Source: an uncultured bacterium
GTDB lineage: Bacteria > Zixibacteria > MSB-5A5 > CAIYYT01
Direction: 5' to 3'
DNA: 64,000 bases
Assembly (NCBI GenBank): GCA_963726455.1
Contig: CAVSCK010000003.1
Coordinates: 384,001-448,000 of the forward strand
The translations under genes were made by a program, and so were the position numbers. Below, in pieces: positions 8,283 to 54,847 of the stretch. Under the pieces are notes generated by a model that had not been told where the DNA came from, searched no databases, and saw nothing but the letters and a program-made list of their open reading frames with translations. Within the stretch, counting starts at the first letter, position 1. Every line of letters starts with the position of its first letter.

Positions 8283-8310
8283 CTTTTCCTTCTTCACAAA
8301 TGAGCTACAG

Positions 8311-21454: not shown

Positions 21455-21497
21455 ACCGACAATAATAGACGCTGCGACGCCGAAGTTGTCCAGCAAT

Positions 21498-23916: not shown

Positions 23917-24025
23917 TGTTCTTACACGCCTGGCGGCGCTTGGAACCACTTGCAAATGCGTTTGGAGAACTGTCGGAGAGCGGGTAGATTAACCAGTTGA
24001 TGGGCCGCAAACGTACGGAAGTTCA

Positions 24026-25740: not shown

Positions 25741-26742
25741 ATGCCGGCGAATTTAACCCCACCATATAAAGCCGCCGAACAGCGCTATCGGGAGGCGACC
25801 GACGATGCTGCACGCCTGGAAGCTCTCAATGAGATGATGCAGGTCATCCCTAAGCATAAGGGGACGGAGAAACTGCAGGCAGAGATCAAGGCCAAGATAG
25901 CCAAGATCAAGAAAGGGGCGCAGGCAAAACCGGCAGGGGCAAAGGCCAAGTCACTCGATAACATTCCACGAGAGGGCGCCGCACAGATTCCGCTGGTGGG
26001 CCCGCCGAACAGCGGCAAGTCGCAGTTTCTGGCGGCTGTCTCGCACGCGCACCCGGAAATCGCCGATTATCCGTTTACGACACGGGCTCCGGTGGCGGGA
26101 ATGATGCCTTGGGAAAACATCAAGTTTCAGTTGATTGACTTGCCGCCGATCTCAGACAGTCATTTGAGGGCTGGATGACTTCGCTGCTGTTTCGCGCCGA
26201 TGCCATGTTTCTGTTCGCCGATCTGTCCTCTGATGACCTGCTGGATAGACCTGGAGCATTCGCTCAATCTCTTAAGGGAGCATCGGATATTACTGACTCA
26301 TCCCGATTTCGAGGTGAGCGAAGAGGATTACTCGCTGGATGAGGTTTCCAAGCGAACGTTCCTGATCGCCAACAAGGTTGATCTGGATGAGGACGGAATT
26401 CGGCTGGACTTTCTCAAACAGGCGTTTGGGGACAAGTATCCAATATATCCAGTCAATGCCACCACCGGCGACGGAGTAGCGTGTCTGGAAGCCGATCTGT
26501 TTCATTCGCTGAAACTGCTGCGTGTTTACACCAAGACGCCGGGGCATCCGGCAGATATGGGTGACCCGATTATCCTGTCGACGCCGGCGACGGTGGAACA
26601 TGCCGCCTTCAAGATTCACAAGGATTTCGCTCAGCGTCTGGCGTTCGCCAAGATTTGGGGTAAAGGCAAATTCGACGGATCGCACGTACATAACGATTTT
26701 CATTTGTCGGATGGCGATATATTGGAGTTTCATCTAAAGTAG
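25741..26742 (+). CDS. DRG/OBG-family GTPase with TGS domain, frameshifted near 26165-26245
   Basis: MPANL...PKHKGTEKL, GPPNSGKS, DYPFTT, DLPP, NKVD, RVYTK.PG, L.DGDILEFH. Confidence 0.88.
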
Positions 26743-33574: not shown

Positions 33575-35803
33575 TTGCGCACACCGGCGCTTTATGCGCT
33601 GATCTTTTTTGCCGGGGGGATATTGCTGGCAGTCAACACCGAACTGCCTGCGATGATCTATCTGGGCGTAGCGGTTATTGCTGCGGCGCTGGCAGTGATC
33701 GTCTATCTCACGGGCAAAGCGCTTATCAGTCGTGCCCTGATTTGTGCAGCGATGGTTGCGGGCGGCGCGTTTCTCACCGAATTGCAGAGCGCGGAGTTTC
33801 CATCTAATCACATCTCGCGGTTCGCATCCGCCAGCCAGATTATGACCGTCACCGGAACGGTTGTCTCTGAGCCGGACATCCGGCCGGACAAGACGTTTCT
33901 GACGGTCGAGGTTGATTCCTTGCGGTACCGTGAACGGGCGATTCCCTCCTGCGGGCGACTGCGGCTGCAAGTTCAGGAACCGACCACGGCATTCGGCTAC
34001 CGCGATCGCATCATGTTTACCGGCTACATGAATCTGCCGCAGAGCGGACGCAATCCGGGCGCGTTCGACTACCGCCGTTACCTCGCGATTCGGCAGATCA
34101 GCGCCATTGTCACGATTAACAGCGCCAGTCGCATTACGATTCTGCAGTCGGGCGGCAGTGAGCCATTCGTGCGAGGCGTTATTACGCCCGTGCGTGAATA
34201 TATCGCTTCGGTTTTCGAGCACTATCTGCCGGCTGAACAAGCGGCAGTGATGAAAGGATTTTTGATCGGCGACGTGCGCTACATATCGCGCGATGTTTAC
34301 CAGCGTTTCAAGGACACCGGCACGTTGCACGTGCTGGCAGCATCGGGAGCAAACGTTGCATATGTCATCTCGGCGCTGTTTCTCGGCATCCGGCTGTTTC
34401 GCCTGGCTCGGCAATATCGAGTCTACCTGCTGATCGCAGGTGTCGTCGTGTTCTCGTTTCTGGCATACAACCAGCCGTCGGTGGTGCGCGCCTCAGTTAT
34501 GGCCGTGGTGACGCTGATCGGAGTCGCGCTGTATCGCGACACCAACTGGGTTAATAACATCTCGGTTGCGGGTTTGATTATTCTGGCATTCCGGCCGCTG
34601 TATCTCTATGACCTGGGCTTCCAACTGTCGTTCGGTGCGGCTTTCGCGTTGATACTGTTCATGCCGGCGCTGGAACGATTTCTGCCGCGCCCACAGGGCA
34701 TACTGAAGAAGAGTGGCCGCTATTTCCTGTTAATACTCAATGGCAGCGTTGTCGCACAGTTGGGCGTGATTCCGGTTTTGATCTACAATTTCCACACGGT
34801 GCCGCTGGTCAGTTTCCTGGCCAACCTTGTGGTCGTGCCGTTGGTGGGGATTTCGACAACGCTGGGTATCATTCTAGTGTTTTTGTCCGCGATTCCCGTG
34901 GTGTCGACGCTGCTCGGAACGGTGCTGACGCTGTCGCTGAAATTGACGCTGACCTCCATCGACTATTTCTATGCGCTGCCGATTCCACAATTGCGGCTGG
35001 CCGCGCCGCATATTTTGTTGATCATCTGCTACTATCTCGGACTGCAGATTATCTTCTCCTCGATTATGAAAAGGCGGTTGGCGGCACTGTTTCCGGTGTT
35101 GCTATTGGTCTGCCTGAACACACTGGTCTGGAAAGATGTGATTGCGGGAGAGAATCCACGAACGGAGGTCACGTTCCTGGATACACGTGACATGACGACA
35201 GTTTTTATCAAAGAACCTGACGGCACATCCACCCTGATCAATGGCGGTGGCGCCGACGTGTCGACAAATCGGGGCGAGACAACGGTGTTGCCGTTCCTGC
35301 TGGCCAAAGGCGTCAGCCACTTGGACGAGGTTCGAGTCACTACCGACGGAGCGGGCAACCGTGAGTCGATCAGGTCAGTTATGGCAGGTCTGCGACAGCG
35401 TTGGCCGGGAGACGGTGACAGGACGGCTGACGACCTCGATCTCGATGAGATGATCGCAGCAACAGACTCACTGCCGATTTTGTATTCCGGCGATTTTACG
35501 ATTGCTTTGCTGGCGGGCGAAGTTCCTGTGCAAAATCTGAACAATCTGCCGCCCAACGTCCAGGTTTTGGCTGCCGATTGGCGCTATTTGAAACAATCCG
35601 AGTTCGCGGGCTTCCTGAAATTGCTTCACGTTGAAACACTAATACTTACGAACTACCCCAGCTATTACACGGCGAGAGAGCCGCTGCGCCTATTGCGCGA
35701 GTCAATGCCTGAATCCGAAATCTACTCGGTACTGGAATCAGGCGGAATCGTAGTCAGCATATATACAGACGGTTACCGTGTATCGGCAACAGCCAATAGG
35801 TGA
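33575..35803 (+). CDS. comEC: DNA internalization competence protein ComEC/Rec2
   Basis: DUF4131-like region with RNPGAFDYRRYL, competence domain GTLHVLAASGAN, PSVVRA, GFQLSF; degenerate C-terminal beta-lactamase-like domain. Confidence 0.9.
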   Translation: MRTPALYALIFFAGGILLAVNTELPAMIYLGVAVIAAALAVIVYLTGKALISRALICAAMVAGGAFLTELQSAEFPSNHISRFASASQIMTVTGTVVSEPDIRPDKTFLTVEVDSLRYRERAIPSCGRLRLQVQEPTTAFGYRDRIMFTGYMNLPQSGRNPGAFDYRRYLAIRQISAIVTINSASRITILQSGGSEPFVRGVITPVREYIASVFEHYLPAEQAAVMKGFLIGDVRYISRDVYQRFKDTGTLHVLAASGANVAYVISALFLGIRLFRLARQYRVYLLIAGVVVFSFLAYNQPSVVRASVMAVVTLIGVALYRDTNWVNNISVAGLIILAFRPLYLYDLGFQLSFGAAFALILFMPALERFLPRPQGILKKSGRYFLLILNGSVVAQLGVIPVLIYNFHTVPLVSFLANLVVVPLVGISTTLGIILVFLSAIPVVSTLLGTVLTLSLKLTLTSIDYFYALPIPQLRLAAPHILLIICYYLGLQIIFSSIMKRRLAALFPVLLLVCLNTLVWKDVIAGENPRTEVTFLDTRDMTTVFIKEPDGTSTLINGGGADVSTNRGETTVLPFLLAKGVSHLDEVRVTTDGAGNRESIRSVMAGLRQRWPGDGDRTADDLDLDEMIAATDSLPILYSGDFTIALLAGEVPVQNLNNLPPNVQVLAADWRYLKQSEFAGFLKLLHVETLILTNYPSYYTAREPLRLLRESMPESEIYSVLESGGIVVSIYTDGYRVSATANR

Positions 35804-35858
35804 CCGTAGAAACGGGTTATCCCACATAGGCCTAAACAGGCCAAAAACCAAATCCTCT

Positions 35859-35886
35859 TAAAGTATTAGCCGAATCCACCCGATAA
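35859..35886 (+). promoter_or_regulatory. sigma28 (FliA/SigD)-like promoter of the Mgl/Roadblock/pil operon
   Basis: TAAAGTAT...CCCGATAA with TAAA-N16-CCCGATAA spacing, 79 nt upstream of ATG 35966. Confidence 0.5.
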
Positions 35887-35965
35887 AGAATATGAATTGG
35901 ACTGCGCGGGAGTATTCCCGTCGTGAAATATTGAACAGCTAACAGGTTCTTAAAAAGCTCGAGAC

Positions 35966-37156
35966 ATGAGTTTTACCGGTAATCTGCAGACGGTGGCATT
36001 TTCCGATCTGCTCCAGCTTTTCTCTGCCGGAAAAAAGACGGGCACCGTCACCATTGTGCGTGGCAACATCCGCAAGGAGCTCGTCTTCAGAGACGGCAAT
36101 ATCATCAGCGCGACCTCGCATGATGCTGAGGAAGACTATCTGGGACAGATCCTCTTGAAAGCCGGCCGCATTTCGAAAACCGACCTTCAACGGGCAGTCT
36201 ATATGCACAAGACCTCGGGCAAGCGCATGGGGCAAGTGCTGGTAGAGATGAAGCTCGTGAGCCGCGATGAACTGGGGTTGTATCTGCGGCAGCAGATCGA
36301 AGAGATCATCTACAACCTGTTCAGTTGGAAAGAGGGAGAATTCATCTTCCGTGAGGGGCAACTGCCGGCCACGCGCGAGGGCCTGGTCGAATTGAACACG
36401 ATGAACGTGATTATGGAGGGCACGCGGCGCATCGACGAATGGGTCGAGATCCAGAAAGTATTGCCACGCGACAACCAGATTCTCTGCGTCTCGCCGCTCA
36501 TCCAGTCCAAGAATGACGAAGTGACGCTGTCGCTCGATGAGTTCAAGGTGATAACGCTGGTGGACGGCAAACGGACGTTGCCGGAAATTCTGGAATCGTC
36601 GCCGTTGGGCGAATTCGTGACCTCACGCGCGATCTACAAGCTGATTAACTCCGGGTTGGTCGAGACCACGATGGTCAAGGAAACCGAGATTAACGACCCG
36701 CGCGAAGAGGATTCCTTGTTCTGGCTGTTGCTGCGCGTGTATGCCTCCGCGTTCAGCCAGATTCAGAAGGTGCTGGAACGCAAACTCGGACCGGAAAACG
36801 AAAAACTGCAATCTACGCTGTCAGGATTTCGCAAAGGCATCTGGCAGTGTTTCGTCGGCGTGAATCATTCGGACTTCCCGACCAACTTTGAGTCGATCAA
36901 ACGCGCGATGGCGAAGATACCCAAGGAAGTCAGAGTCTTGAGATTAGTCAGCGGGCTGAACCAGATTCTGGAGGAACAGCTCGCGTTCGTATACTCATAT
37001 CTCGGTATAGAGGTTCGTCGCCAGGTCGCGGCAGATATCAAGAAAGAAGTGGCGTTGCCGTTGGCGGAGCGCCGCGAAGTTGATAAGAAGTACGACGTCG
37101 GCAACGAGCTGTACCGGATTCTCAAAGAAGTCAAATTGACCAAAGCGGTCTTGTGA
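35966..37156 (+). CDS. DUF4388 (PatA N-terminal-like) domain protein with MshEN-like repeats
   Basis: GNLQTVAFSDLLQL...KTG...FRDGNI; LGQILLKAGRIS...RMGQVLVEMKLVS; LFSWKEGEF.F; IMEGTRRIDEW. Confidence 0.85.
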   Translation: MSFTGNLQTVAFSDLLQLFSAGKKTGTVTIVRGNIRKELVFRDGNIISATSHDAEEDYLGQILLKAGRISKTDLQRAVYMHKTSGKRMGQVLVEMKLVSRDELGLYLRQQIEEIIYNLFSWKEGEFIFREGQLPATREGLVELNTMNVIMEGTRRIDEWVEIQKVLPRDNQILCVSPLIQSKNDEVTLSLDEFKVITLVDGKRTLPEILESSPLGEFVTSRAIYKLINSGLVETTMVKETEINDPREEDSLFWLLLRVYASAFSQIQKVLERKLGPENEKLQSTLSGFRKGIWQCFVGVNHSDFPTNFESIKRAMAKIPKEVRVLRLVSGLNQILEEQLAFVYSYLGIEVRRQVAADIKKEVALPLAERREVDKKYDVGNELYRILKEVKLTKAVL

Positions 37157-37163
37157 GGTAGCT

Positions 37164-37538
37164 ATGAGAAAAATCGCGTGTGGGTTAATCGTGACGCTGA
37201 TGGCACTCCCCTTCTCCGGAGCGCTGGCCGAGCCACTGGCGAAGTCAAGCGATGTGACGGCGATGGGTGTGGCAATCGACATCATTCTGCTGGCCGCCGG
37301 TCTGCTTTGTTTCGTGCTGTGTTTGAGAATATTCGCGTTGCTCCGGGGCGGCGAACTTTCACCGGGCTGGCAGGTGCTGGCCATTTCGTTTCTGATCTTC
37401 TCGCTCGGAGAGCTTCTGAGCGTAGCCATCAAGCTGGACATCGTCACCGTGCAGAAGAACGCCATCGGCGTTCTGCAATTACTGGCGTTGTTCTTGGTGG
37501 CTATCGGTGTAGCGAAGATTAAGAAGAGTTTGACGTAA
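37164..37538 (+). CDS. Small membrane protein (signal plus about 3 TM)
   Basis: GAGG RBS, hydrophobic segments, operonic position. Confidence 0.7.
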   Translation: MRKIACGLIVTLMALPFSGALAEPLAKSSDVTAMGVAIDIILLAAGLLCFVLCLRIFALLRGGELSPGWQVLAISFLIFSLGELLSVAIKLDIVTVQKNAIGVLQLLALFLVAIGVAKIKKSLT

Positions 37539-37560
37539 AACCGCATTCCCAAGGGTCTGT

Positions 37561-38424
37561 ATGATGGAAGCAGCAACAATAGCCGAGCGGATTGACCAGT
37601 GCGAACGAATTCTCAAAGAGAATTCGCGCTCACAGGTCTTTGCCGCATTGGCCGATGCTTTGCGCCTTAACGGCGACCTGGAAAAGGCATTCCGGGTATG
37701 TCGCCAGGGATTGCGAATTCATCCCGACTACGGCGCCGGCCATCTGGTGATGGCAAAGATCAGTCTCGGCCGCAAGATGTACGATTGGGCAGAGCAAGAG
37801 CTGACGAAAGCAGTGGAATTCGATGGCGAGACTCGCGCCACGGAGCAATTACGGGTCGAGATACTGATTGGCAAGGGGAGTTACTCTGAGGCAGACGCGG
37901 CCATACGCAAGCTCAGGGTAGCGGGCGCCAATCCCCTGCTCGTTACGGATTTGCACCAGCGACTGGAACGCCAGAAGAAGGAATCCAAGCGCCGTAACAT
38001 CGATCAATCGACCGGTGCTCCAAGGGGGAAAGGTTCCGAGGCCAAGACGGCCGCCCCTGTTGCAAAGCCGAAGACTCCACTGACACTGGGACAAGCGCTG
38101 GATCAATTGGCGGCGTTGCCATTTGTGGATTCGATAGTCTGCGCCCACACTGACGGCACACCGGTTGATCATCGCGGCGATTCGCCGCAGGATATCAACG
38201 AGACTGCGGCCTTTGGTGTGGAGATGTGCCGCATTGCCGAGACGGAGAATGCGATTGCCAATTTCGGGGAGGCACAACAGATCGCCGTCGAGAACGGCGA
38301 ACGCACGATTGTGATCATGAAATTCAGCCGTTACAACCTGGTGATCTATTGCCAGAAAGGGATCAACCTGGGCGCCATGCGGATGCGGCTTGAAGACATT
38401 AGAGATAACTTGCAGGACGGCTAG
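37561..38424 (+). CDS. TPR + Roadblock/LC7 domain protein
   Basis: SQVFAALADALR...QGLRIHPDY TPR-like N-terminus; C-terminal DG...INLGAMRMRL Roadblock pattern. Confidence 0.75.
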   Translation: MMEAATIAERIDQCERILKENSRSQVFAALADALRLNGDLEKAFRVCRQGLRIHPDYGAGHLVMAKISLGRKMYDWAEQELTKAVEFDGETRATEQLRVEILIGKGSYSEADAAIRKLRVAGANPLLVTDLHQRLERQKKESKRRNIDQSTGAPRGKGSEAKTAAPVAKPKTPLTLGQALDQLAALPFVDSIVCAHTDGTPVDHRGDSPQDINETAAFGVEMCRIAETENAIANFGEAQQIAVENGERTIVIMKFSRYNLVIYCQKGINLGAMRMRLEDIRDNLQDG

Positions 38425-38440
38425 GAAGTGAGAGGCATGT

Positions 38441-39382
38441 ATGGATTGGACAATTAGGAATAATCGCCATGTAGCTCTGATAGCGTTGATAGTAGCCGCG
38501 CTTCCAATGCTGATCTATCCCAATACTTTTGGCGTCACGTTTGACATGAGCTGGAAGTGGTACGTTCCGTTGGAGGGAACTTACTTCTTTGCGGTGGGGC
38601 TGATTCTCTATCGCCGCCGCTCTCTGGGCTACACGATAGTGGCGACTTTGTTTGCCATCGTAGGCCGGCTCGTTCTGTCCGGCATCTTCATGGCATTGCT
38701 GATGGCGCTGGAACAAATGCCCGCGTCTGACGCTTTCCCAACCGCGTTTGAGACGTTCCGGCCGGCAGTCTTGCTGGCGGGTGTCACCGCGCCATTGCTG
38801 TTCAGCCCGGTTATTAAGTCGATTTTGCCGAGCCGGATTCGCAGACGGCATTTGCAGAGACATGAAGCAGCACCGGTCATTTACACGTCGACTGCGACGC
38901 CGGTGAATCGACCGGCGGCTCCGGCAGCGGCACCGACGCCGACGAACGAGCGCGTAACTGCGGATTTTTACGACCATTCGTTCAACGGAGCGGTGCAACA
39001 CATCGGCAGCTACTCGGGCGTGCGTTGCGCGCTGCTGATCGATCAGGAAGGCCTGCCGATTGCGAGCTGGAATCGCGGTGAATGGGATCAGGAAATGTGG
39101 GGTGCGTTGACGAAGCGGATCGTGGATGATCTTCAGGATCTCAACGCCAAAGCTGGAACTTTACCACTGAGCACGATCGAGTTCAAGTCGGGCGGACATC
39201 GGTTCAGTCTCTATCGGGCGGCCGATATGTGGTTGTTGTCCGTTGCGGACGCCGACTCGGATGAACTCGAAAAGATACGGTTACTTCAGGCCGCCGAAAT
39301 GATCGAGCGGCATTGCGAAGAAAAATATGCCAATGTTCATAGCAGCGAAATAGGGAGAAAATATGCGGGAAGTACTGTCTGA
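38441..39382 (+). CDS. Membrane protein with a C-terminal Roadblock/LC7 domain
   Basis: About 4 N-terminal TM, Pro/Ala/Thr linker, then GVRCALLIDQEGLPIAS...IRL Roadblock pattern. Confidence 0.72.
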   Translation: MDWTIRNNRHVALIALIVAALPMLIYPNTFGVTFDMSWKWYVPLEGTYFFAVGLILYRRRSLGYTIVATLFAIVGRLVLSGIFMALLMALEQMPASDAFPTAFETFRPAVLLAGVTAPLLFSPVIKSILPSRIRRRHLQRHEAAPVIYTSTATPVNRPAAPAAAPTPTNERVTADFYDHSFNGAVQHIGSYSGVRCALLIDQEGLPIASWNRGEWDQEMWGALTKRIVDDLQDLNAKAGTLPLSTIEFKSGGHRFSLYRAADMWLLSVADADSDELEKIRLLQAAEMIERHCEEKYANVHSSEIGRKYAGSTV

Positions 39383-39698
39383 GTTAAACAAGACTTCCGG
39401 TATTACCGGCAGCATGCTAGTCGGTCACGACGGCATCGTTATTGCCGCGGACCTGAATAGTCAATTCGACGATGACACCATCGGGGCCCTGGCCGGATCG
39501 ATCAGCTCGACCGTGGCCAAGAGTCTGGAGCGGCTGCAACAGTCGCCACTCACACAATTGACTATTGAGGCCGCCAAAGGAAAACTGTTCATCACGGAAA
39601 CCCCCGTGGGCTACCTGGTGGTGACAACGGAAGACAAGATCAACATGGGACTGATCCGGCTGGAGATCAAGAACGCGATATCGCATATCAGCTTGTAA
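39363..39698 (+). CDS. Stand-alone Roadblock/LC7 protein (MglB/MglC-like)
   Basis: GITGSMLVGHDGIVIA...NMGLIRLEIK. Confidence 0.88.
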   Translation: MREVLSELNKTSGITGSMLVGHDGIVIAADLNSQFDDDTIGALAGSISSTVAKSLERLQQSPLTQLTIEAAKGKLFITETPVGYLVVTTEDKINMGLIRLEIKNAISHISL

Positions 39699-39719
39699 CA
39701 AGCCGGCGGGGAGACTGAC

Positions 39720-40832
39720 ATGGTTTCGATAAACTACTCAAACCGGGAAGTGAGCTGTAAGATCGTTTACTACGGCCCCGGTTTGTCAGGGAAGACAACG
39801 AACCTGCAATACGTGCATGCGAAGGTCCCGAAAAAGACGCGGGGCGATTTGATCAGTCTGGCGACTGACGCCGATCGCACGCTGTACTTCGATTTCCTGC
39901 CGATCAACATCGGCGCGATCAACGGTTTTGCGACCAAGTTCCAGTTGTACACGGTGCCCGGACAGGTCTTTTACAACGCCACCCGCAAGCTGGTATTGCG
40001 CGGTGTGGACGGACTGGTGTTTGTGGCGGATTCGCAGCGTTCGAAGCGCGACGAAAATATCGAATCGCTCAACAATCTAAAGGAAAACCTGATCGAGTAC
40101 GGCTATGACATCAACTCGCTACCGATAGTCCTTCAGTACAACAAGCGTGACCTCCCGGAAGTGATGGGGCTAGACGAACTCCAGAAGGATCTCAATTGGA
40201 ATAACCTCGCCTATTTCGAAGCCTCGGCGGTGAAGGGTGTGGGTGTATTCGACACGTTGAAAATGATAACGAAACTCGTGCTCAATACCGCTCGCCGAGT
40301 GGAGCAGCCGGTGGCCGCGACCACAACGGCGGCTGCGGCAGCCCCGGCGATGATGCCCATGCAGCATGAGACTCTGGGAACTGCGGTAGATCATCATTCG
40401 ATGACGGATTCGATGCCACAGCGCGAAGCGGCGTCGTCAGCTACGACTGTTGCTCCACCACCTCCGGTTCCGGTCGAGAAGCCGCGCCGGATCGAGGTAC
40501 GTGACATTGTGAACGATTCAGACTGGGGTACACGCGAAGCCGCGAAACATGATCCACCTCCGCCGATGGCGGCCGAGCCGTCAGCGCTTCCGAAGCGTCC
40601 CAGCTTGGCTGAAATCGAGAGCAAGTTGCGGCAAGTTGACAACAACCATATGGATCCCATAAAGGACCCAGCAGCTCCCAAGCCGGTGGCAGAAGCCGAC
40701 GAAGCGGCACGGGCGCAGTTTGCGGACGCGTTTGAGGTCCCGCGCATGGCCATCATGCAGAAGAGTCTGAAGCCCAAAAAGAGAAAATCAAAGTTCTTCT
40801 TATTCCGCTGGTTCAGCGGAGGAAATGATTAG
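39720..40832 (+). CDS. mglA: MglA-family small GTPase with a long C-terminal extension
   Basis: KIVYYGPGLSGKTTNL, DRTLYFDFLP, YTVPGQV, GVDGLVFVADS, NKRD, EASA. Confidence 0.93.
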   Translation: MVSINYSNREVSCKIVYYGPGLSGKTTNLQYVHAKVPKKTRGDLISLATDADRTLYFDFLPINIGAINGFATKFQLYTVPGQVFYNATRKLVLRGVDGLVFVADSQRSKRDENIESLNNLKENLIEYGYDINSLPIVLQYNKRDLPEVMGLDELQKDLNWNNLAYFEASAVKGVGVFDTLKMITKLVLNTARRVEQPVAATTTAAAAAPAMMPMQHETLGTAVDHHSMTDSMPQREAASSATTVAPPPPVPVEKPRRIEVRDIVNDSDWGTREAAKHDPPPPMAAEPSALPKRPSLAEIESKLRQVDNNHMDPIKDPAAPKPVAEADEAARAQFADAFEVPRMAIMQKSLKPKKRKSKFFLFRWFSGGND

Positions 40833-40846
40833 TCAGGAGGTATGAC

Positions 40847-41335
40847 GTGGCTGGTGAAAAGCTGATCGTATACTGGGATGACACGGAAAAGATCGACGGT
40901 GTCATGACCAAGCTTCTCAAGGGCGCGGAAGCGAAATGTGCGCTCCTGGTCGATAAGGATGGTCACCTCATCGCCCGGCATGGTTTCACCCAGACGCTCG
41001 ACACTACGGCTTTGGCGGCTTTGATGGCCGGCAGTTTTGCCTCGACCTCAGAGATAGCCAAGCTGGTGGGCGAGCCGGAGTTTTCAGTGCTGTTCCATCA
41101 GGGACGCAAAGACCACATCCACATGTGCCTGGTCGGCGACCGCTCGATCCTGGCCGTCGTCTTTGACGACCGTACGACGATCGGCATGGTACGTCTGTAC
41201 GCCAAGGAAGCGGCCGAGGAATTGCAGAAGATTTTCGAAGTCGTGCTGCGCAAAGTAAACAGTTCCGAGCAGGGATTGTCCGAGGAGTTTACGAATTCCG
41301 CTGAAAACAAGCTGGAGGACATCTTCCGCGACTGA
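40847..41335 (+). CDS. mglB: MglB (Roadblock-domain regulator/GAP of MglA)
   Basis: LVDKDG.LI...DTTALAAL.AG...AKLVGE.EF..LFHQG...VFD.RTT.G.VRL, with an acidic C-terminal helix (LEDIFRD) as in Myxococcus MglB. Confidence 0.9.
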   Translation: MAGEKLIVYWDDTEKIDGVMTKLLKGAEAKCALLVDKDGHLIARHGFTQTLDTTALAALMAGSFASTSEIAKLVGEPEFSVLFHQGRKDHIHMCLVGDRSILAVVFDDRTTIGMVRLYAKEAAEELQKIFEVVLRKVNSSEQGLSEEFTNSAENKLEDIFRD

Positions 41336-41375
41336 GGCGGGCCGGCAATAAGCGCAGACGGTATTGAGAAGGTAT

Positions 41376-43073
41376 ATGCCTAATTCCAAAGAACTAGGGA
41401 CCATGCTGGTCGAAGCCGGCAAAATCAGCAACGAGCAGCTGACGCAGGCCCTTACCTTGATGGACAAAAACAAGGGTCGCCTCGAGCAGATCCTTGTTAC
41501 GATGGGCGCGGTTACCGATGAAGAGGAAATTACCACTTTCATCGGCAAGCAGCTCAATATCGGCGCGATCCGTCTGTCTGACCTGGAACTTAATGCTGAC
41601 GTAGTCAAACTCATTCCGCATGACATCGCTCGCAAGTTCAACGTTATATCTGTCAGCAAATTCGGCAAGACGCTGGTGGTGGCCATCAGCGACCCGAACA
41701 ACATCTATGTCCTCGATGCGATAAAATTCATCACCGGCTGCGTTGTGCAACCGGTGATCTCGCCCGAGCCGGCAATTCAGAAAGCCATCGAGCACTATTA
41801 CAACGAATCGTCGCAGTATTCGGAAATCCTGCGCGGCCTCGAAGAGTCGGAACTCGAGGTCATTTCCACCAGCGATGACGCGGTCAATGAGCTCGAATTA
41901 CAGTCGGCGGTGCAGGACAAGCCGCTGGTCAAGCTGGTGGACTCGATTATCAGCGAGGCAATCCGCAAGGGGGCCTCGGATATTCATATCGAGACCTACG
42001 AGAAGAAGATTCGCGTTCGCTATCGTATCGACGGTTCGCTGCAGGAAATGGCGCCGTTGCCGTTCAAGTATCGCGCGGCGATTGTCAGCCGCGTAAAGAT
42101 CATGGCCGACCTGGATATTTCCGAGCGGCGTCTGCCACAGGACGGGCGCATCAAGATCAAAGTCGGCGATCGCGCGGTTGATCTGCGCGTATCAGTGCTG
42201 CCGACAATCTTCGGGGAAAAGGTCGTGATGCGTATTCTTGACCCGAAGTCACTGATGCACGACCTGACCAATCTCGGTTTCCCGGAGTGGTCACTCAAGC
42301 AATTTCAACGCGCCATCACTCTCCCCTACGGGATTGTGCTGGTCACCGGTCCGACCGGTTCAGGAAAGACCACGACGCTGTATTCGGCGCTCAAGACGAT
42401 CAATCAGCCGGATGTCAACATCATGACGGCCGAAGATCCCGTCGAGTTCAACTTCGAAGGCATCAATCAGGTGGCGGTGCGTTCGGATATCGGGCTGACG
42501 TTCGCCGCCGCGCTGCGGTCGTTCTTGCGCCAGGACCCGGATATCATCATGGTCGGTGAGATTCGTGACGGCGAGACCGCCGAAATTGCGATCCGCGCAT
42601 CACTGACGGGACACCTGGTATTCAGCACCTTGCATACGAACGATGCTCCGTCATCGATCAACCGCCTGATCGACATGGGAATCCCAAGTTACCTGGTGGC
42701 GTCGGCGTCCAAGCTAATCATGGCGCAACGTATGGTGCGCAAGATCTGCAAGCGCTGTAAAGAAGAAGTCAAAGTCGAGGAAGAAATTCTGGTAAGTCTG
42801 GGAGTCCCGGAAGCAGAGCTAAAGACCTTCAAGGCCTATCAGGGCAAGGGCTGTTCCGACTGCAACAATATCGGATTTTCCGGACGAACGGGTTTGTTCG
42901 AAGTCATGCCGGTCACACCGGAAATCGAAAAGCTCATTATAGCCAATGTGCCGACACCGGAGATCACGGCTCAGGCCGTTAAGGAAGGTATGATGACGCT
43001 GCGCGTGGCCGGAGTAGACAAGGTCCGTAAAGGCATAACCACTGTCGAAGAAGTTATCGCGGAGACATCGTAG
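41376..43073 (+). CDS. pilB: Type IV pilus assembly ATPase PilB
   Basis: ASDIHIE, RLPQDGR, GPTGSGKTTT, TAEDPVE, LRQDPD, TGHLVFSTLHTN, CxxC...CxxC. Confidence 0.93.
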   Translation: MPNSKELGTMLVEAGKISNEQLTQALTLMDKNKGRLEQILVTMGAVTDEEEITTFIGKQLNIGAIRLSDLELNADVVKLIPHDIARKFNVISVSKFGKTLVVAISDPNNIYVLDAIKFITGCVVQPVISPEPAIQKAIEHYYNESSQYSEILRGLEESELEVISTSDDAVNELELQSAVQDKPLVKLVDSIISEAIRKGASDIHIETYEKKIRVRYRIDGSLQEMAPLPFKYRAAIVSRVKIMADLDISERRLPQDGRIKIKVGDRAVDLRVSVLPTIFGEKVVMRILDPKSLMHDLTNLGFPEWSLKQFQRAITLPYGIVLVTGPTGSGKTTTLYSALKTINQPDVNIMTAEDPVEFNFEGINQVAVRSDIGLTFAAALRSFLRQDPDIIMVGEIRDGETAEIAIRASLTGHLVFSTLHTNDAPSSINRLIDMGIPSYLVASASKLIMAQRMVRKICKRCKEEVKVEEEILVSLGVPEAELKTFKAYQGKGCSDCNNIGFSGRTGLFEVMPVTPEIEKLIIANVPTPEITAQAVKEGMMTLRVAGVDKVRKGITTVEEVIAETS

Positions 43074-43130
43074 CGGCAAGGCCGCTGCATTTGATGGTGA
43101 AAATTATACTCGAATGTACTGGAGCAATAA

Positions 43131-44213
43131 ATGGTAAACCTGCGTGAACTTCTGGAAATTCTGATCGAGAAGAACGCCTCCGATCTGCATCTCGCAGTCG
43201 GCTCGCCGCCACAGATCAGAGTCGACGGTCGTTTAACGACTCTCGATATGGATGCGCTTACGCCTGAAGCCACCAAGAAACTGGCATACAGCATGATGTC
43301 CGAGAAGCAAAAACAGCGTTTTGAAGAATGTTCGGAACTGGACATGTCATTCGGCATCGAGAACATGAGCCGTTTCCGCTGCAACGTTTTTATGCAGCGC
43401 GGCAATATCTCGGTGGCATTGCGGCAGATTCCCTACAAAGTGCCGACGTTCGAGGAATTAGGCATCGACAAGGCGATCGTGGAAATGGCCAATCTGCCGC
43501 GTGGACTGGTGCTTGTCACCGGCCCGACCGGCTCGGGCAAATCCACCACGCTGGCGGCTTTGATCGATAAGGTCAATCGGGAACGGCACGCGCACATTCT
43601 CACGGTTGAGGATCCTATCGAGTACCTGCACCGGCATCAAAACTGCCTGATCAATCAGCGCGAAGTTGGCGCCGACACCAAGTCATTTGCCACGGCGCTG
43701 AAATACGCGTTGCGGCAGGACCCCGACGTGGTTCTGGTGGGCGAGATGAGAGACCTGGAAACAGTTTCCGAGGCATTGAATATTTCGGAAACCGGCCATC
43801 TGACATTCGCCACGTTGCACACCAACTCCTGCGCTGAAACGATCAATCGTATCGTCGACGTCTTCCCTACCAACCAGCAGGAACAGGTGCGGGTAACGTT
43901 GTCGTTCGTGTTGCAGGGCGTCGTGTCGCAGCAATTGGTGCCGAAGATCGGCGGCGGCAGATCGCTGGCCACCGAAGTGATGATCTGTACTCCAGCCGTC
44001 CGTGCCCTGGTTCGTGACGACAAGATTCACCAGATATATAGCATGATTCAGTCAGGCCAGAAGTATGGCATGAGGACAATGAATATGTCCCTTGCCGACC
44101 TCTACCTGTCGCGGAAAATCACGATCGGCGAGGCGATGGCGCGCTCCTCGAACGTGCAGGAGTTGAACGAGATGCTGTCGCGGGTTCAGGCCACGGCGGA
44201 AGCCCGCTACTAG
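43131..44213 (+). CDS. pilT: Type IV pilus retraction ATPase PilT
   Basis: ASDLHL, GPTGSGKSTT, EDPIE, ALRQDPD, GEMRD, AVRALVRD (AIRNLIRE-like), GMRTM. Confidence 0.93.
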   Translation: MVNLRELLEILIEKNASDLHLAVGSPPQIRVDGRLTTLDMDALTPEATKKLAYSMMSEKQKQRFEECSELDMSFGIENMSRFRCNVFMQRGNISVALRQIPYKVPTFEELGIDKAIVEMANLPRGLVLVTGPTGSGKSTTLAALIDKVNRERHAHILTVEDPIEYLHRHQNCLINQREVGADTKSFATALKYALRQDPDVVLVGEMRDLETVSEALNISETGHLTFATLHTNSCAETINRIVDVFPTNQQEQVRVTLSFVLQGVVSQQLVPKIGGGRSLATEVMICTPAVRALVRDDKIHQIYSMIQSGQKYGMRTMNMSLADLYLSRKITIGEAMARSSNVQELNEMLSRVQATAEARY

Positions 44214-44234
44214 TGCGGAAGAACGGAGGTTGCC

Positions 44235-45434
44235 ATGCCAATCTTTGAATATAAGGGCAAGACAGTTACCGGTTCGCCGGTCGAGGGCGAGCTTAAGGCG
44301 AAGGACCGGGGAGAACTCGAACGTATTCTGAGGCGCAACAAGGTTCTCGTAGACAAGATTTCCAAGAAGCCGTCTCAGATAAATATCCGCATCGGCAGCG
44401 GCATCAAGAAAGTACATATCTCCCGCTTCACACGGCAATTCGCCACGATGATCGGCGCGGGCCTGCCGATGGTGCAGTGCCTGGATATTCTGTCCAAGCA
44501 GATGGAGTCTCAGGAATTCTGCAAAGTCATTAATGAGATCAAGGATTCCGTGTCGTCAGGATCAACGCTTTCCGAGGCCATGAAGAAACACAAGAAAGCG
44601 TTCGATGACCTTTATGTGAACATGGTCGAAGCGGGTGAAATGGGCGGCGCGCTCGATACGATTCTGGTGCGTTTGGCCAACTATCGTGAAAAGGCCGACA
44701 CTCTGAATCGCAAGATTCGCAGCGCCATGGCGTATCCGGCGGTGATATCCGTAGTCGCGACCGGCATCACCATCGCCATGCTGACTTTTATCGTGCCGGT
44801 ATTTGCCAAGATGTTTGCGGGCTTGGGCGCTGAACTTCCGGCGCCGACTCAGTTCGTATTGACTGTTTCGGGGATAATCAAGAGCTACATCCTGGTGTGG
44901 CTGGGCGCTATGGTGGCGTTCATTGTCGCATTCCGCATGGTTCTGAAAAATGAGAAAGGTCGATACTACTTCGACAAGTTTATGCTAAGGACACCGGTGT
45001 TCGGAAATCTCGTGCGGAAAGCGGCCGTGGCAAGATTCACGAGAACGCTGGGGACATTGATTCAGTCGGGTGTTACGATTCTTGACGCACTCGAAATCAC
45101 GGCCAAAACTGCAGGCAACAAAGTCCTGCAACTGGCGATCCGGAAGTCAGTAGTTTCGATCGCCGAGGGCGACACGATCACGAATCCGCTGAAAGAATCG
45201 GGAGTGTTTCCGCCGATGGTTATTCAGATGATCGGTGTCGGCGAGAAGACGGGCGGCTTGGACGAAATGCTATCGAAGATCGCAGATTTCTATGATGACG
45301 AAGTTGATGCCGCCGTGAGTGCATTGACTGCGCTGATCGAGCCGGTGGTTATCGTCTTGATGGGCGCCGTTATCGGCGGTCTGTTGATCGCCATGTATCT
45401 GCCGATGTTCGACATTATCGGTAAAATCAACTGA
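44235..45434 (+). CDS. pilC: Type IV pilus platform protein PilC (T2SS F family)
   Basis: FTRQFATMIGAGLP, AGEMGG.LD, GEKTG.LD.ML.K.ADFY, AMYLPMF. Confidence 0.93.
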   Translation: MPIFEYKGKTVTGSPVEGELKAKDRGELERILRRNKVLVDKISKKPSQINIRIGSGIKKVHISRFTRQFATMIGAGLPMVQCLDILSKQMESQEFCKVINEIKDSVSSGSTLSEAMKKHKKAFDDLYVNMVEAGEMGGALDTILVRLANYREKADTLNRKIRSAMAYPAVISVVATGITIAMLTFIVPVFAKMFAGLGAELPAPTQFVLTVSGIIKSYILVWLGAMVAFIVAFRMVLKNEKGRYYFDKFMLRTPVFGNLVRKAAVARFTRTLGTLIQSGVTILDALEITAKTAGNKVLQLAIRKSVVSIAEGDTITNPLKESGVFPPMVIQMIGVGEKTGGLDEMLSKIADFYDDEVDAAVSALTALIEPVVIVLMGAVIGGLLIAMYLPMFDIIGKIN

Positions 45435-45481
45435 CGTTTGGGGTTTAGGGTCACTACGAAGCCACCTCTGCACTCACAGGG

Positions 45482-47254
45482 GTGGCTTTAACTATTATTA
45501 TGCCATTAAGTCGTCGACGCAAACTCAAGGAAGAGCTGAAAAGCTCGTGGTTCTTGCCACTGCGCTTATCAATCTTCCTGCTCGTATTCGGCGCGGTCGT
45601 CCTCTCCGGGGCCAGCCAGTCGGGTAATTTCCAACCGTTTCTGATCTACTCGATCACAACGCTGGTCTTCCTGCTGGTGATCGAATTCAATGTGCCGTTC
45701 ATCCGACCGCGTGTACTGAGCTTCATTATATTATCACAGATAGTTCTGGAATTGGCTGCCGAAGGAACCGTAATTCGCGGCGCCGGACACCTGACGTCAC
45801 AATATTCGGTGCTCTTCCTGTTGACCATCGTGTCGGCGAGTCTGGTCTATCGACTGTCGGGAACGCTTTCCGTCGGCACCTTGGCGTCGCTGATCTACGC
45901 TTTCACATCGACAACTCAGGGGTACCCCGGCGGGATATTCGATCTGGCACAATTGCAGAAGGCGTATCAGGCCAATGACGAGCTGTTCTACGCGGTGTTT
46001 CTGCATGTGTGCACGTTCTATCTCGTGGCATTTATTTCCGGTTTTCTGGCTGCCAAGCTGAGGGTCAAGGAAGGCGAGCTGTCGCATACCTCGGAGAGAT
46101 TGGAGCGCGTACAGCTCGACACGGACGACATTCTGCATAACTTGCATTCGGGCCTGATTACCGTCGACAACCGAGGGCGCATCGTTTACTTCAACCGCGC
46201 GGCCGAGACGATTCTGGGTGTGAGCCAGGAGGAAGCGAGGGGCCGCGATTTTCTTGAAGTATTTGCCGATCGAATGCCGGAATTCTGCGAAAGTGTGCTT
46301 TCGGTGCTGAGAATGGCAAAACCGAACTTGCGGTCGGAAATTGAGATTGTCGGCCGGGACGGAAGAGCCATGCCGTTGGGGCTTACCACATCTGTCCTTG
46401 GAGACGAGCAAACCGGAATCCGTGGCGTGATCGCAATCTTTCAGGACCTGACTGTCGCCAAGAAGATGGAGCAGGCACTGATGAAAGCCGACCGGTTGGC
46501 AGCCGTCGGTGAACTGTCTGCGCGTATCGCGCACGAAATTCGTAATCCGCTGGCGTCGATCTCCGGGTCGGTTGAAGTGCTCAAGAATGAGATTGAGCTG
46601 TCAGGCGAGAATGTGCGGCTGATGGAATTGATCGTCAAAGAGTCGGAACGTCTGTCGCGCGTGCTGAACGATTTTCTGGTTTACGCGCGCACGTCTCCGG
46701 TGCACAGCACCAAAGTGGAATTGGTCTCGCTGGTCGGTGATGTAGTTGAGCTCTTGAAGCACAATCCCCTATTCCCTGCCGGACTGGCGATCAACTTCGA
46801 GACCGAACAACCGACGGCGTACATTGTGGCTGCCGAAGATCAGGTCCGCCAGATCGTGATTAACATAGTGACAAACGCGGTTGAGGCAGTCGATCCGGCA
46901 GCGGGTACTGTCGACATCAGGATATCCTCTCCCTCATCGTCATTGGGCCTGCTGACATCAATGTGGGTAGCCCTGAAAGTTACTGACAATGGCTGCGGAA
47001 TAACAGGTTCCGAGAGAGAAAAGATGTTCGAGCCATTCTATTCGAGAAAGAAAGGTGGTACCGGTCTGGGGCTGGCGATTGTCAGGCGCTGCGTAGACAA
47101 CATTGATGCTCGCGTCGATGTCGAATCGACACCTGACAAGGGGACCACTTTTACATTCCTATTCAAGAAGTACATGAATCCGCACGACACCGGCAAGATC
47201 AACATCCCGGCTGGCGAGCAATCTGAAAGTCAGTCGGCTGCCCGCCGCTCTTGA
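45482..47254 (+). CDS. pilS: PilS-like PAS sensor histidine kinase
   Basis: About 6 TM, PAS domain, IAHEIRNPLASISGS, GTGLGL; follows pilC as in deltaproteobacterial pil loci. The start may be ATG 45500. Confidence 0.8.
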   Translation: MALTIIMPLSRRRKLKEELKSSWFLPLRLSIFLLVFGAVVLSGASQSGNFQPFLIYSITTLVFLLVIEFNVPFIRPRVLSFIILSQIVLELAAEGTVIRGAGHLTSQYSVLFLLTIVSASLVYRLSGTLSVGTLASLIYAFTSTTQGYPGGIFDLAQLQKAYQANDELFYAVFLHVCTFYLVAFISGFLAAKLRVKEGELSHTSERLERVQLDTDDILHNLHSGLITVDNRGRIVYFNRAAETILGVSQEEARGRDFLEVFADRMPEFCESVLSVLRMAKPNLRSEIEIVGRDGRAMPLGLTTSVLGDEQTGIRGVIAIFQDLTVAKKMEQALMKADRLAAVGELSARIAHEIRNPLASISGSVEVLKNEIELSGENVRLMELIVKESERLSRVLNDFLVYARTSPVHSTKVELVSLVGDVVELLKHNPLFPAGLAINFETEQPTAYIVAAEDQVRQIVINIVTNAVEAVDPAAGTVDIRISSPSSSLGLLTSMWVALKVTDNGCGITGSEREKMFEPFYSRKKGGTGLGLAIVRRCVDNIDARVDVESTPDKGTTFTFLFKKYMNPHDTGKINIPAGEQSESQSAARRS

Positions 47255-53988: not shown

Positions 53989-54847
53989 ATGCCTACACCT
54001 CGCGACATACGCAAGCGCATCCGCGCCGTTACCAACATCAGCCAGATCACGCGGGCGATGCAAATGGTGGCTGCGGCACGACTGCGCAAGGCGCAGATGA
54101 TGGTCGAACAATCACGCCCCTATTCTGAAAAGATGCGGCTGATTCTCGAACAGATTTCGTCGGCTTCGGCTGAGGTTGAACATCCGTTCTTCGAGCAGCG
54201 CGAAGTCAACAAGCGCGTTCTGGTAGTCTTTACTTCCGATCGCGGCATGTGCGGCTCGTACAATTCGAACGTAGTTCGGCAAGCAGTCCGAATGCTGCGC
54301 GAACCGGGCGGCGAGAACATCCAGTTGGTGTTGGTCGGCAAGAAGGCGGAAGATTTCTTCCGTCGCCAAAGCTGGCCGGTTCTGAAAATCTACAAGGGCC
54401 TGCAGGGACGCATGAACCTCGACGTCGTGCGCGACCTGACGAATTACCTGATCAGTCTTTTCGTTTCCGCACGAAGTCGACAAGGTGCAACTGCTTTACA
54501 CGCGATTTATCTCGATGGTGTCATACAAGCTGGGAGTCGCTGATTTCCTGCCTATCGTTCCGCCCGCGGCGGACAAGGCGGGCAACCGGCAGTATATATT
54601 CGAACCCGATCCGAAACAGATTTTCGATTCGCTGATGCCGGCCTTTGCGCTGACAATCGTGCAGATGGCTCTGGCGGATTCTTTGGCGTCCGAACATGGC
54701 ACGCGCATGATCGCAATGAGTCTGTCGACGCGCAACGCCGAGGAAATGATTGACACCTTGACGATGCAGTACAACAAAGCCCGACAGTCGGCGATCACGA
54801 AGGAATTGCTGGAAATCGTCTCCGGTGCGGAGGCGTTGCGGGGCTAG
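53989..54847 (+). CDS. atpG: F0F1 ATP synthase subunit gamma, frameshift near 54470
   Basis: QITRAMQMVAAARL, TSDRGMCG, ASEHG.RM.AM, YNKARQSAITKELLEIVSGA. Confidence 0.95.

Follow-up and report, generated by a model that had tools for sequence, protein, structure and literature searches.

The window analysed here, a 64,000-nucleotide (nt) stretch of contig CAVSCK010000003.1 (positions 384,001-448,000) from a Zixibacteria genome of 3.64 Mb in five contigs, contains a cluster of eleven genes that encodes an enlarged, probably membrane-bound form of the known MglA/MglB polarity switch, fused to the motor operon of the type IV pilus and not a separate kind of system. Among the bacterial Ras-like GTPases that govern polarity, MglA serves as the model. 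The eleven open reading frames (ORFs), all co-oriented on the + strand and spanning 35966-47254, encode in order a PATAN (DUF4388) protein, a small membrane protein, a tetratricopeptide-repeat (TPR) protein fused to a Roadblock domain (TPR-Roadblock), an integral-membrane Roadblock protein with transmembrane (TM) helices (TM-Roadblock), a stand-alone Roadblock protein, MglA, MglB, PilB, PilT, PilC and a PilS-like kinase. The gaps between them are 7, 22, 16, -20 (an overlap), 21, 14, 28, 57, 21 and 47 nt, the largest being 57 nt, or 65 nt before pilS if this gene begins at the ATG at 45500; the ORF listing thus confirms the order, coordinates and gaps of at most about 65 nt described in the initial annotation of this sequence. 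The arrangement is not due to chance and recurs in 20/20 related genomes examined. We propose, with a probability of roughly 60%, that it represents an enlarged MglA/MglB switch at the inner membrane, co-transcribed with pilB-pilT-pilC and most likely controlling the place or the moment at which PilB engages the base of the pilus.

The initial annotation had counted four distinct Roadblock proteins, of which one is embedded in the membrane by several helices and another carries TPRs. All four are retrieved, two by Pfam and two by hhalign, AlphaFold2 (AF2) and Foldseek, and the AF2 models and hydropathy profiles agree with both fusions. The stand-alone Roadblock protein (111 residues; 39363..39698, +), whose gene overlaps that of TM-Roadblock by 20 nt, matches Robl_LC7 at 44.9 bits, and MglB (162 residues; 40847..41335, +) matches it at 52.6 bits, above the cut-off; the three Pfam Robl_LC7 matches found in a whole-genome search all lie inside this cluster. 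For TPR-Roadblock (287 residues; 37561..38424, +) and TM-Roadblock (313 residues; 38441..39382, +), 19 orthologous sequences each were aligned for the fold tests. The N-terminal part of TPR-Roadblock has TPR_14 and related matches and its C-terminus has no Pfam Roadblock match; residues 177-287 align with the profile of the stand-alone Roadblock protein with an hhalign probability of 98.6% and an E-value of 9.5e-16. Its AF2 model, with a predicted local distance difference test score (pLDDT) of 88.6, consists of TPR helices (residues 4-150), a disordered linker (residues 152-164) and a Roadblock domain (residues 176-283) of alpha-beta-beta-alpha-beta-beta-beta-alpha topology. Foldseek search against the PDB revealed that this model resembles LAMTOR2/p14, Asgard Roadblock proteins and MglB, with E-values of ~1e-6 and template-modelling scores on the target (TMt) of 0.8-0.86.

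The C-terminus of TM-Roadblock also aligns with the stand-alone Roadblock profile (93.4%, E 2.5e-7). Its AF2 model has a pLDDT of 73 overall, with TM helices within residues 5-138, a disordered linker (residues 134-178) and a Roadblock domain (residues 180-309) that reaches a pLDDT of ~90. The best Foldseek match is MglB of Myxococcus xanthus (PDB 6hjm), with an E-value of 8.4e-7 and a TMt of 0.82-0.86, and the same Roadblock structures as for TPR-Roadblock are matched with comparable scores. A strongly basic stretch lies right after the last TM helix, which fits a topology in which the Roadblock domain would be cytoplasmic; no ESM Atlas match to this protein was found at 0.9 or more. By profile alignment and predicted structure, the C-terminal domains of both fused proteins are Roadblock folds. 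Comparison against the MglB profile is weak (45% for TPR-Roadblock and 32% for TM-Roadblock), and at the profile level both are closer to the stand-alone Roadblock protein than to MglB. The stand-alone protein itself has a mean column identity of 72% over 20 sequences, compared to 78% for MglB, and its nearest relatives among PDB chain sequences are Asgard Roadblock proteins (7yh1, E 1.1e-13), with MglB scoring 0.017. MglB is a predicted Roadblock-fold homologue of the GTPase-activating protein (GAP) of MglA with a conserved C-terminal segment, and scores 91 bits against the NCBIfam MglB equivalog (cut-off 200).

The MglA ORF is 370 residues long rather than ~195, and consists of a GTPase core (residues 1-195; 39720..40304, +) and a C-terminal tail of ~175 residues (residues 196-370; 40305..40832, +), a tailed variant that departs from the ~195-residue single-domain form of the family. 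Family searches place the protein among Ras/Arf-like GTPases. The core is 62% identical to MglA of Cystobacter fuscus and is of Group-1 type, with the Group-1 signature residues; in a 23-row alignment the P-loop, R53 (the intrinsic arginine finger), T54 of switch I, T78 and Q82 of the TVPGQ motif, and the NKxD motif are invariant columns. The cognate mglB begins 14 nt downstream. Neither a domain match (Pfam) nor a C-terminal Roadblock domain was found in the tail, which is formed by a length-variable, low-complexity linker rich in Pro, Ala, Ser and Glu, followed in 20/20 rows, at the very C-terminus, by a conserved basic-aromatic motif (approximately nt 40755-40817 in this genome). The last 20 residues carry a net charge of +4 to +9 in all 20 Zixibacteria-type rows, compared to -38 to +4 for the rest of the tail.

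To place this tail, the length of MglA was surveyed in the 80 best genome loci, 19 of Zixibacteria type and 61 from outside Zixibacteria. MglA exceeds 215 residues in all 19 Zixibacteria-type loci (328-476 residues) and measures 311-356 residues in 7/7 Planctomycetota loci (L046, L047, L054, L066, L069, L072 and L074), where its C-terminus is a hydrophobic, TM-like stretch of 19 residues with a Kyte-Doolittle (KD) value of 2.07-3.0. It is also long in a Sumerlaeota locus (L035) and in locus L042, and has 215 residues or fewer in the other 52 of the 80. The tailed Planctomycetota genes have a short Roadblock gene before them and mglB after them. The basic-aromatic C-terminus of the Zixibacteria protein is probably a membrane anchor, and the Planctomycetota homologues look tail-anchored from their sequences; that two unlike membrane-type endings occur on the same kind of MglA argues for membrane attachment.

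The PATAN protein (396 residues; 35966..37156, +) matches PF14332 at 113.5 bits (cut-off 25), and has an MshEN-type helical insertion at residues ~56-111 and a conserved C-terminal helical region that belongs to no known family. The insertion matches NF053729 ("c-di-GMP motif, MshE-related"; c-di-GMP, cyclic di-guanosine monophosphate) over residues 59-110 with 46 bits (cut-off 38), and its profile, from an alignment of 18 orthologues, matches the solved c-di-GMP-binding MshEN domains of PilF (6f8l, 1.9e-17) and MshE (5htl, 8.9e-8). The MshEN receptor pattern (PMC5013675) consists of two 24-residue motifs separated by a 5-residue spacer; Arg, Gly, hydrophobic and Gln residues are conserved within it. 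The PATAN insertion keeps this 24+5+24 spacing and its second motif is near-canonical, so that binding of c-di-GMP is plausible from sequence, though not assured. An MshEN-type motif is also present in the N-terminus of PilB (NF053729, residues 11-59). Complex prediction for PilB(1-190) with PATAN(1-245) gave a score of 0.01 (mark 0.32), by which binding is neither favoured nor disfavoured. The genome has another PATAN (DUF4388) gene outside this cluster (C4:881821-882132, 60.2 bits, in an open frame of 272 residues).

The small membrane protein that follows (124 residues; 37164..37538, +) has a signal-like N-terminus and ~3 TM helices by hydropathy, has no Pfam or NCBIfam match, and in the ESM Atlas matches hypothetical clusters of Zixibacteria only. 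It was found by blastp in 11 of 20 class-level loci, and a TM-bearing ORF of 120-160 residues occupies the same gap in 15/18 loci.

Downstream of mglB lie the genes for PilB, the extension ATPase of the type IVa pilus (41364..43073, +; TIGR02538, 721.5 bits, cut-off 675.65), the retraction ATPase PilT (43131..44213, +; TIGR01420, 487.4 bits, cut-off 319.1) and the platform protein PilC (44235..45434, +), which has two T2SSF stretches and scores 518.5 bits against NF052606, under the cut-off of 700. The last gene encodes a PilS-like sensor histidine kinase (45482..47254, +) with HisKA, HATPase_c and PAS domains and a weak 6TM_PilS match; no pilR follows it in the cluster. PilM (188 bits) and the secretin (152.6 bits) are encoded on another contig, C4, and the switch is in this respect not the self-contained one that had been envisaged.

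No terminator-like hairpin on the + strand occurs in any gap from 35966 to 45434, in keeping with the earlier supposition that transcription does not break between mglB and pilB. By contrast, a GC-rich terminator-like hairpin of 13 bp (45458..45489, +; RNAfold, -22.8 kcal/mol) lies 3' of the pilC stop codon and covers the GTG that nominally starts pilS, a gene whose true start is likely the in-frame ATG at 45500. When the 80 nt after pilC were folded with RNAfold, about 12 of 18 class-level genomes, counted by eye, showed a similar GC-rich hairpin, often accompanied by a T-run. Given this conserved terminator-like element, pilS probably forms a transcription unit of its own. The single eleven-gene unit of the initial annotation therefore stands from the PATAN gene through pilC, which is the likely extent of the transcription unit, and does not extend to pilS. 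The 162-nt gap between comEC and the PATAN gene (35804..35965, +), the sole sizeable gap upstream, is the likely promoter region.

MglA was found in 37/41 relatives, and the locus was extracted from 20 class-level genomes of 11 families. The order PATAN > TPR-Roadblock > TM-Roadblock > Roadblock > MglA > MglB > PilB is present in all 20, bearing out the expectation of a gene order conserved in relatives. PilT > PilC come next in 19/20, the exception being G025 of family f6 (locus L110), and PilS in 18/20, with one contig stopping before pilS. ComEC lies upstream in 19/20, and the remaining contig starts too late. Further loci (L013-L033) share the gene order; they overlap with the class-level genomes and are not independent. 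At both G025/L110 and L030 the module and pilB are kept, with no match to pilT or pilC within the ~6-7 kb after them.

A different arrangement was observed in family f2, where both genomes inspected (L121 and L122, one of them 96% complete) have ComEC > PilB > PilT > PilC > PilS without the seven module genes, and none of 3/3 genomes has an MglA match. In G032, which also has no MglA match, pilB lies at a contig start and is uninformative. Since f2 has ComEC directly followed by PilB, with the whole block gone, the seven genes appear to come and go as one cassette, of which this family represents a natural knockout.

Related modules occur in other phyla. The fetched loci were scanned with hidden Markov models of the module's components, and the resulting listing covers 30 of the 61 loci from outside Zixibacteria. 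In 15/30 of these, MglA/MglB have an additional short Roadblock gene next to them, and in ~10/30 a TPR protein. Gemmatimonadota/Longimicrobia have TPR - Roadblock - MglB - MglA with flanking PATAN genes, Sumerlaeota have TPR(-Roadblock) .. Roadblock - MglA - MglB - PATAN, and Planctomycetota have (TPR) Roadblock - MglA - MglB; Myxococcota, Desulfuromonadales and Acidobacteriota have mglB-mglA only. TM-Roadblock was seen in the Zixibacteria type only. A rapidly computed maximum-likelihood tree from 81 MglA cores, midpoint-rooted and with SH-like approximate likelihood ratio test values as the sole support, places Zixibacteria on a single branch (98) and Planctomycetota on a single branch (99). 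A further split (97) separates 38 rows, comprising Zixibacteria, Planctomycetota, L035, L042 and nine Gemmatimonadota of the TPR/Roadblock/PATAN type, from 43 plain mglBA rows. Long branches meet in this tree, and we take the grouping of extended-module MglAs as a lead. The metagenome-assembled genomes of L042 and of L013, L017, L019, L024 and L028 are labelled Bifidobacteriales, Ignavibacteria and so on, and their MglA or loci group with Zixibacteria or the extended-module type; these taxonomic labels are probably unreliable.

It is conceivable, and we suggest it only tentatively, that an old sister lineage of the mglBA pair, an "extended MglA module" composed of MglA, MglB, an extra Roadblock protein, TPR(-Roadblock) and PATAN, runs across Zixibacteria, Planctomycetota, Sumerlaeota and a Gemmatimonadota paralogue. 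Its GTPase would have twice gained a linker and a membrane anchor, once as an amphipathic basic helix and once as a TM tail anchor, and in Zixibacteria the switch would have been wired to the pilus motor through PATAN. If so, bacteria would operate a membrane-located Ras-like switch that uses Roadblock platforms, by a logic like that of hypervariable-region anchoring in eukaryotic Ras/Rho and of Ragulator.

For the Zixibacteria locus, we propose that MglA would be held at the inner membrane by its flexible linker and basic-aromatic C-terminal motif, with MglB acting as its GAP and the GTPase cycling between GTP and GDP at the membrane. TM-Roadblock and the small TM protein may mark the site of the switch, and the stand-alone Roadblock protein and TPR-Roadblock, together with this membrane pair, might attend one nucleotide state of MglA, whether as its platform, its co-regulator or its effector. 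The PATAN protein, perhaps responsive to c-di-GMP, would relay the signal to PilB and PilC, as PATAN domains of Synechocystis do. Licensing of PilB by the switch would probably run through the PATAN and TPR-Roadblock proteins.

Several points weigh against this proposal. Every functional step in it is inferred. The Robl_LC7 match of TM-Roadblock (21.8 bits) is under the gathering cut-off of 23, and the first MshEN-type motif of the PATAN insertion lacks the conserved Arg and Gln, which makes binding of c-di-GMP uncertain. The anchor reading of the MglA tail draws on composition and conservation only, and its end motif may resemble the amphipathic anchors of MinD/FtsA type; the genome has no true MinD, the best TIGR01968 match scoring 64.8 bits against a cut-off of 212.9. 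A sigma-70 scan found no promoter upstream of the module (6 sites compared to 11.7 expected), the scan being uninformative for this phylum. Moreover, family f2 retains pilBTCS without the module, hence the pilus motor does not need it. In other phyla, 0/61 loci have a PilB match in the fetched flank; as these modules are not beside pilB, the ancestral output need not be PilB.

Two alternatives concern how MglA would be positioned. A Ragulator-like scaffold has been considered, in which the extra Roadblock proteins and MglB would form one membrane-bound hetero-oligomer, a receptor that tethers and switches MglA in place of the MglA tail. Roadblock domains typically dimerise, a single operon here encodes four predicted Roadblock folds, one of them membrane-embedded, MglB and LAMTOR structures are among the Foldseek matches, and the stand-alone Roadblock protein is as conserved as MglB, suggesting a constrained partner. 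However, the scaffold is not needed for tethering because MglA carries its own probable membrane anchor. In addition, MglA has no C-terminal Roadblock domain of the Rag type, no LAMTOR1-like wrapping subunit was identified, and, among the loci listed, the modules of Gemmatimonadota, Sumerlaeota and Planctomycetota lack TM-Roadblock; we consider such a scaffold doubtful. The tail could instead serve protein binding, polar targeting or condensate formation, much as the extensions of SofG contact bactofilins. The linker seen here is long and of low complexity, and a basic-aromatic peptide could equally bind acidic proteins or nucleic acid. SofG is described as a GTPase similar to MglA by which PilB and PilT are positioned (PMC4316618). 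The motif nevertheless sits at the extreme C-terminus in every row, and its replacement by a hydrophobic TM-like segment in all seven Planctomycetota loci is hard to explain except by membrane attachment, which makes a purely non-membrane role of the tail improbable.

Two further alternatives concern the output of the switch. The module might place or time a DNA-uptake (competence) pilus that feeds DNA to ComEC, rather than set motility polarity. The comEC gene (33575-35803, +) lies directly upstream and co-oriented, and is kept both in the 19 class-level genomes and in f2, where it abuts pilB. Yet 162 nt separate it from the module, and since ComEC and pilB adjoin in f2 without the module, their adjacency holds nothing module-specific. 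This account is in our view unlikely, and it would alter the output and not the mechanism. Alternatively, the switch may be directed at something else, for example gliding, division or the synthesis of the envelope, with its position beside pilB a lineage-specific accident of gene order. That related modules in other phyla lie away from pilB, and that pilBTCS of f2 stands alone, would suit such a view. It is difficult to reconcile with the gap of only 28 nt to pilB, which holds no hairpin, with an adjacency kept across 11 families, and with the documented links of both PATAN and MglA to PilB in other bacteria, and we regard it as very unlikely.

Among the surroundings of the cluster, MurJ and ComEC are encoded upstream and a DUF255 thioredoxin-like protein downstream, and the remaining genes of the window are housekeeping genes. 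Four of the latter are split into two adjoining ORFs, namely the genes for a class I aminoacyl-tRNA synthetase, for a carbamoyltransferase, for a TGS-domain GTPase and for the ATP synthase gamma subunit, at 6497-8297 (-), 19631-21462 (-), 25741-26742 (+) and 53989-54847 (+); these are probably assembly indel errors or pseudogenes. Unlike them, all eleven ORFs of the cluster are intact. The segment 9585-17678 (+) encodes a 1842-residue multi-PAS hybrid histidine kinase, a second kinase and a sigma-54-dependent response regulator, and 22252-25696 (+) encodes two tandem proteins of ~555 residues with C-terminal TPR repeats and no other family match.

As had been anticipated, the architecture appears not to have been characterised already: a literature search outside which most subscription journals lie retrieved no paper describing it or linking Zixibacteria with MglA, and no account of a membrane-anchored MglA among the matches listed. 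To our knowledge, MglA has always been treated as a small soluble protein. The findings that go beyond the initial annotation are this MglA tail, the MshEN-type insertion of the PATAN protein, the hairpin after pilC, the absence of the cassette from f2, the confinement of Roadblock proteins to the cluster and the wider lineage of extended modules.

The closest known system is the polarity module of M. xanthus (MglA, MglB, MglC, RomR/RomX and RomY, with the effectors SgmX, FrzS and SopA). Both have a Group-1 MglA in which the Arg finger is intrinsic and a catalytic Gln is present, an MglB homologue adjoining MglA, an extra Roadblock paralogue (compare MglC), a TPR protein (compare SgmX) and PilB as the presumed output. 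They differ in gene order, mglA-mglB here compared to MglB > MglA in Myxococcota loci, and in the 175-residue tail and probable membrane anchor of MglA. Moreover, three extra Roadblock proteins, one integral to the membrane and one TPR-fused, are all encoded here together with pilBTC. Among PDB chains, the profile of the stand-alone Roadblock protein retrieved no MglC chain at E<=1. According to PMC11580455, the M. xanthus TPR protein SgmX is recruited by MglA-GTP and delivers PilB to the pole "by an unknown mechanism". The operon described here lists a compact candidate route, from a predicted membrane-anchored MglA through MglB, three Roadblock adaptors, a TPR domain and PATAN to PilB, and thereby supplies testable candidates for the missing link between MglA and PilB.

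The PATAN protein resembles the cyanobacterial PATAN regulators (PixE, PixG and PatA-type) in having a two-repeat helical insertion similar to the N-terminus of PilB. Compared to PixE/PixG, it lacks a receiver domain, is partnered by a GTPase module and not by a chemotaxis-like system, and has a C-terminal domain of no known family. In Synechocystis, a PATAN domain is reported to bind PilB1 as well as PilC's N-terminal domain, to set the direction of pilus assembly, and to suffice to reverse pilus-driven movement (10.1101/2021.06.11.447907).

Such associations have been noticed in broader surveys. The neighbourhoods of Group-1 MglA are described as highly variable and as occasionally including PATAN (Wuichet and Sogaard-Andersen 2014, PMC4316618), and Table S2 of that work lists Gemmatimonas GAU_1409 as "PATAN>MglA>-PATAN" and a 313-residue Fibrobacter MglA in MglA-MglB order. 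The catalogue flags MglB and PATAN only; in the portions of its text and supplement searched, there is nothing on pil genes, membrane Roadblock proteins or MglA tails, and there are 0 entries for TPR, PilB, GspE or T2SE. A defence-system reading of the module was dropped, as 0/7 module proteins match a PADLOC defence family. Neighbourhoods combining PATAN with MglA/MglB were also reportedly catalogued by Makarova et al. in 2006.

The two analogies drawn in the initial annotation, to conservons and to Ragulator, did not hold as family relationships. Similar to the actinobacterial conservon (CvnA-D), the locus combines a Roadblock protein with an MglA-family GTPase and has a sensor kinase nearby. 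However, the GTPase belongs to Group 1 instead of Group 2, the kinase resembles PilS and is located beyond the terminator-like hairpin, and no CvnC/DUF742 was found among the cluster proteins by Pfam; membership was rejected. In Ragulator-Rag, the GTPase docks via its own C-terminal Roadblock domain, and a lipidated LAMTOR1-type subunit wraps two Roadblock heterodimers. Membership was rejected here as well, for the MglA tail is of low complexity without a domain match or Roadblock C-terminal domain, and no LAMTOR1-like subunit was recognised among the eleven genes. What the locus shares with Ragulator-Rag and Ras/Rho, by analogy only, is a set of several Roadblock-fold proteins with membrane attachment around a small GTPase, and a GTPase with a flexible linker and a basic, probably membrane-binding end, which in this MglA has no lipidation signal, unlike the anchors of Ras/Rho. 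In this sense the locus offers a predicted bacterial example of membrane-delimited small-GTPase signalling.

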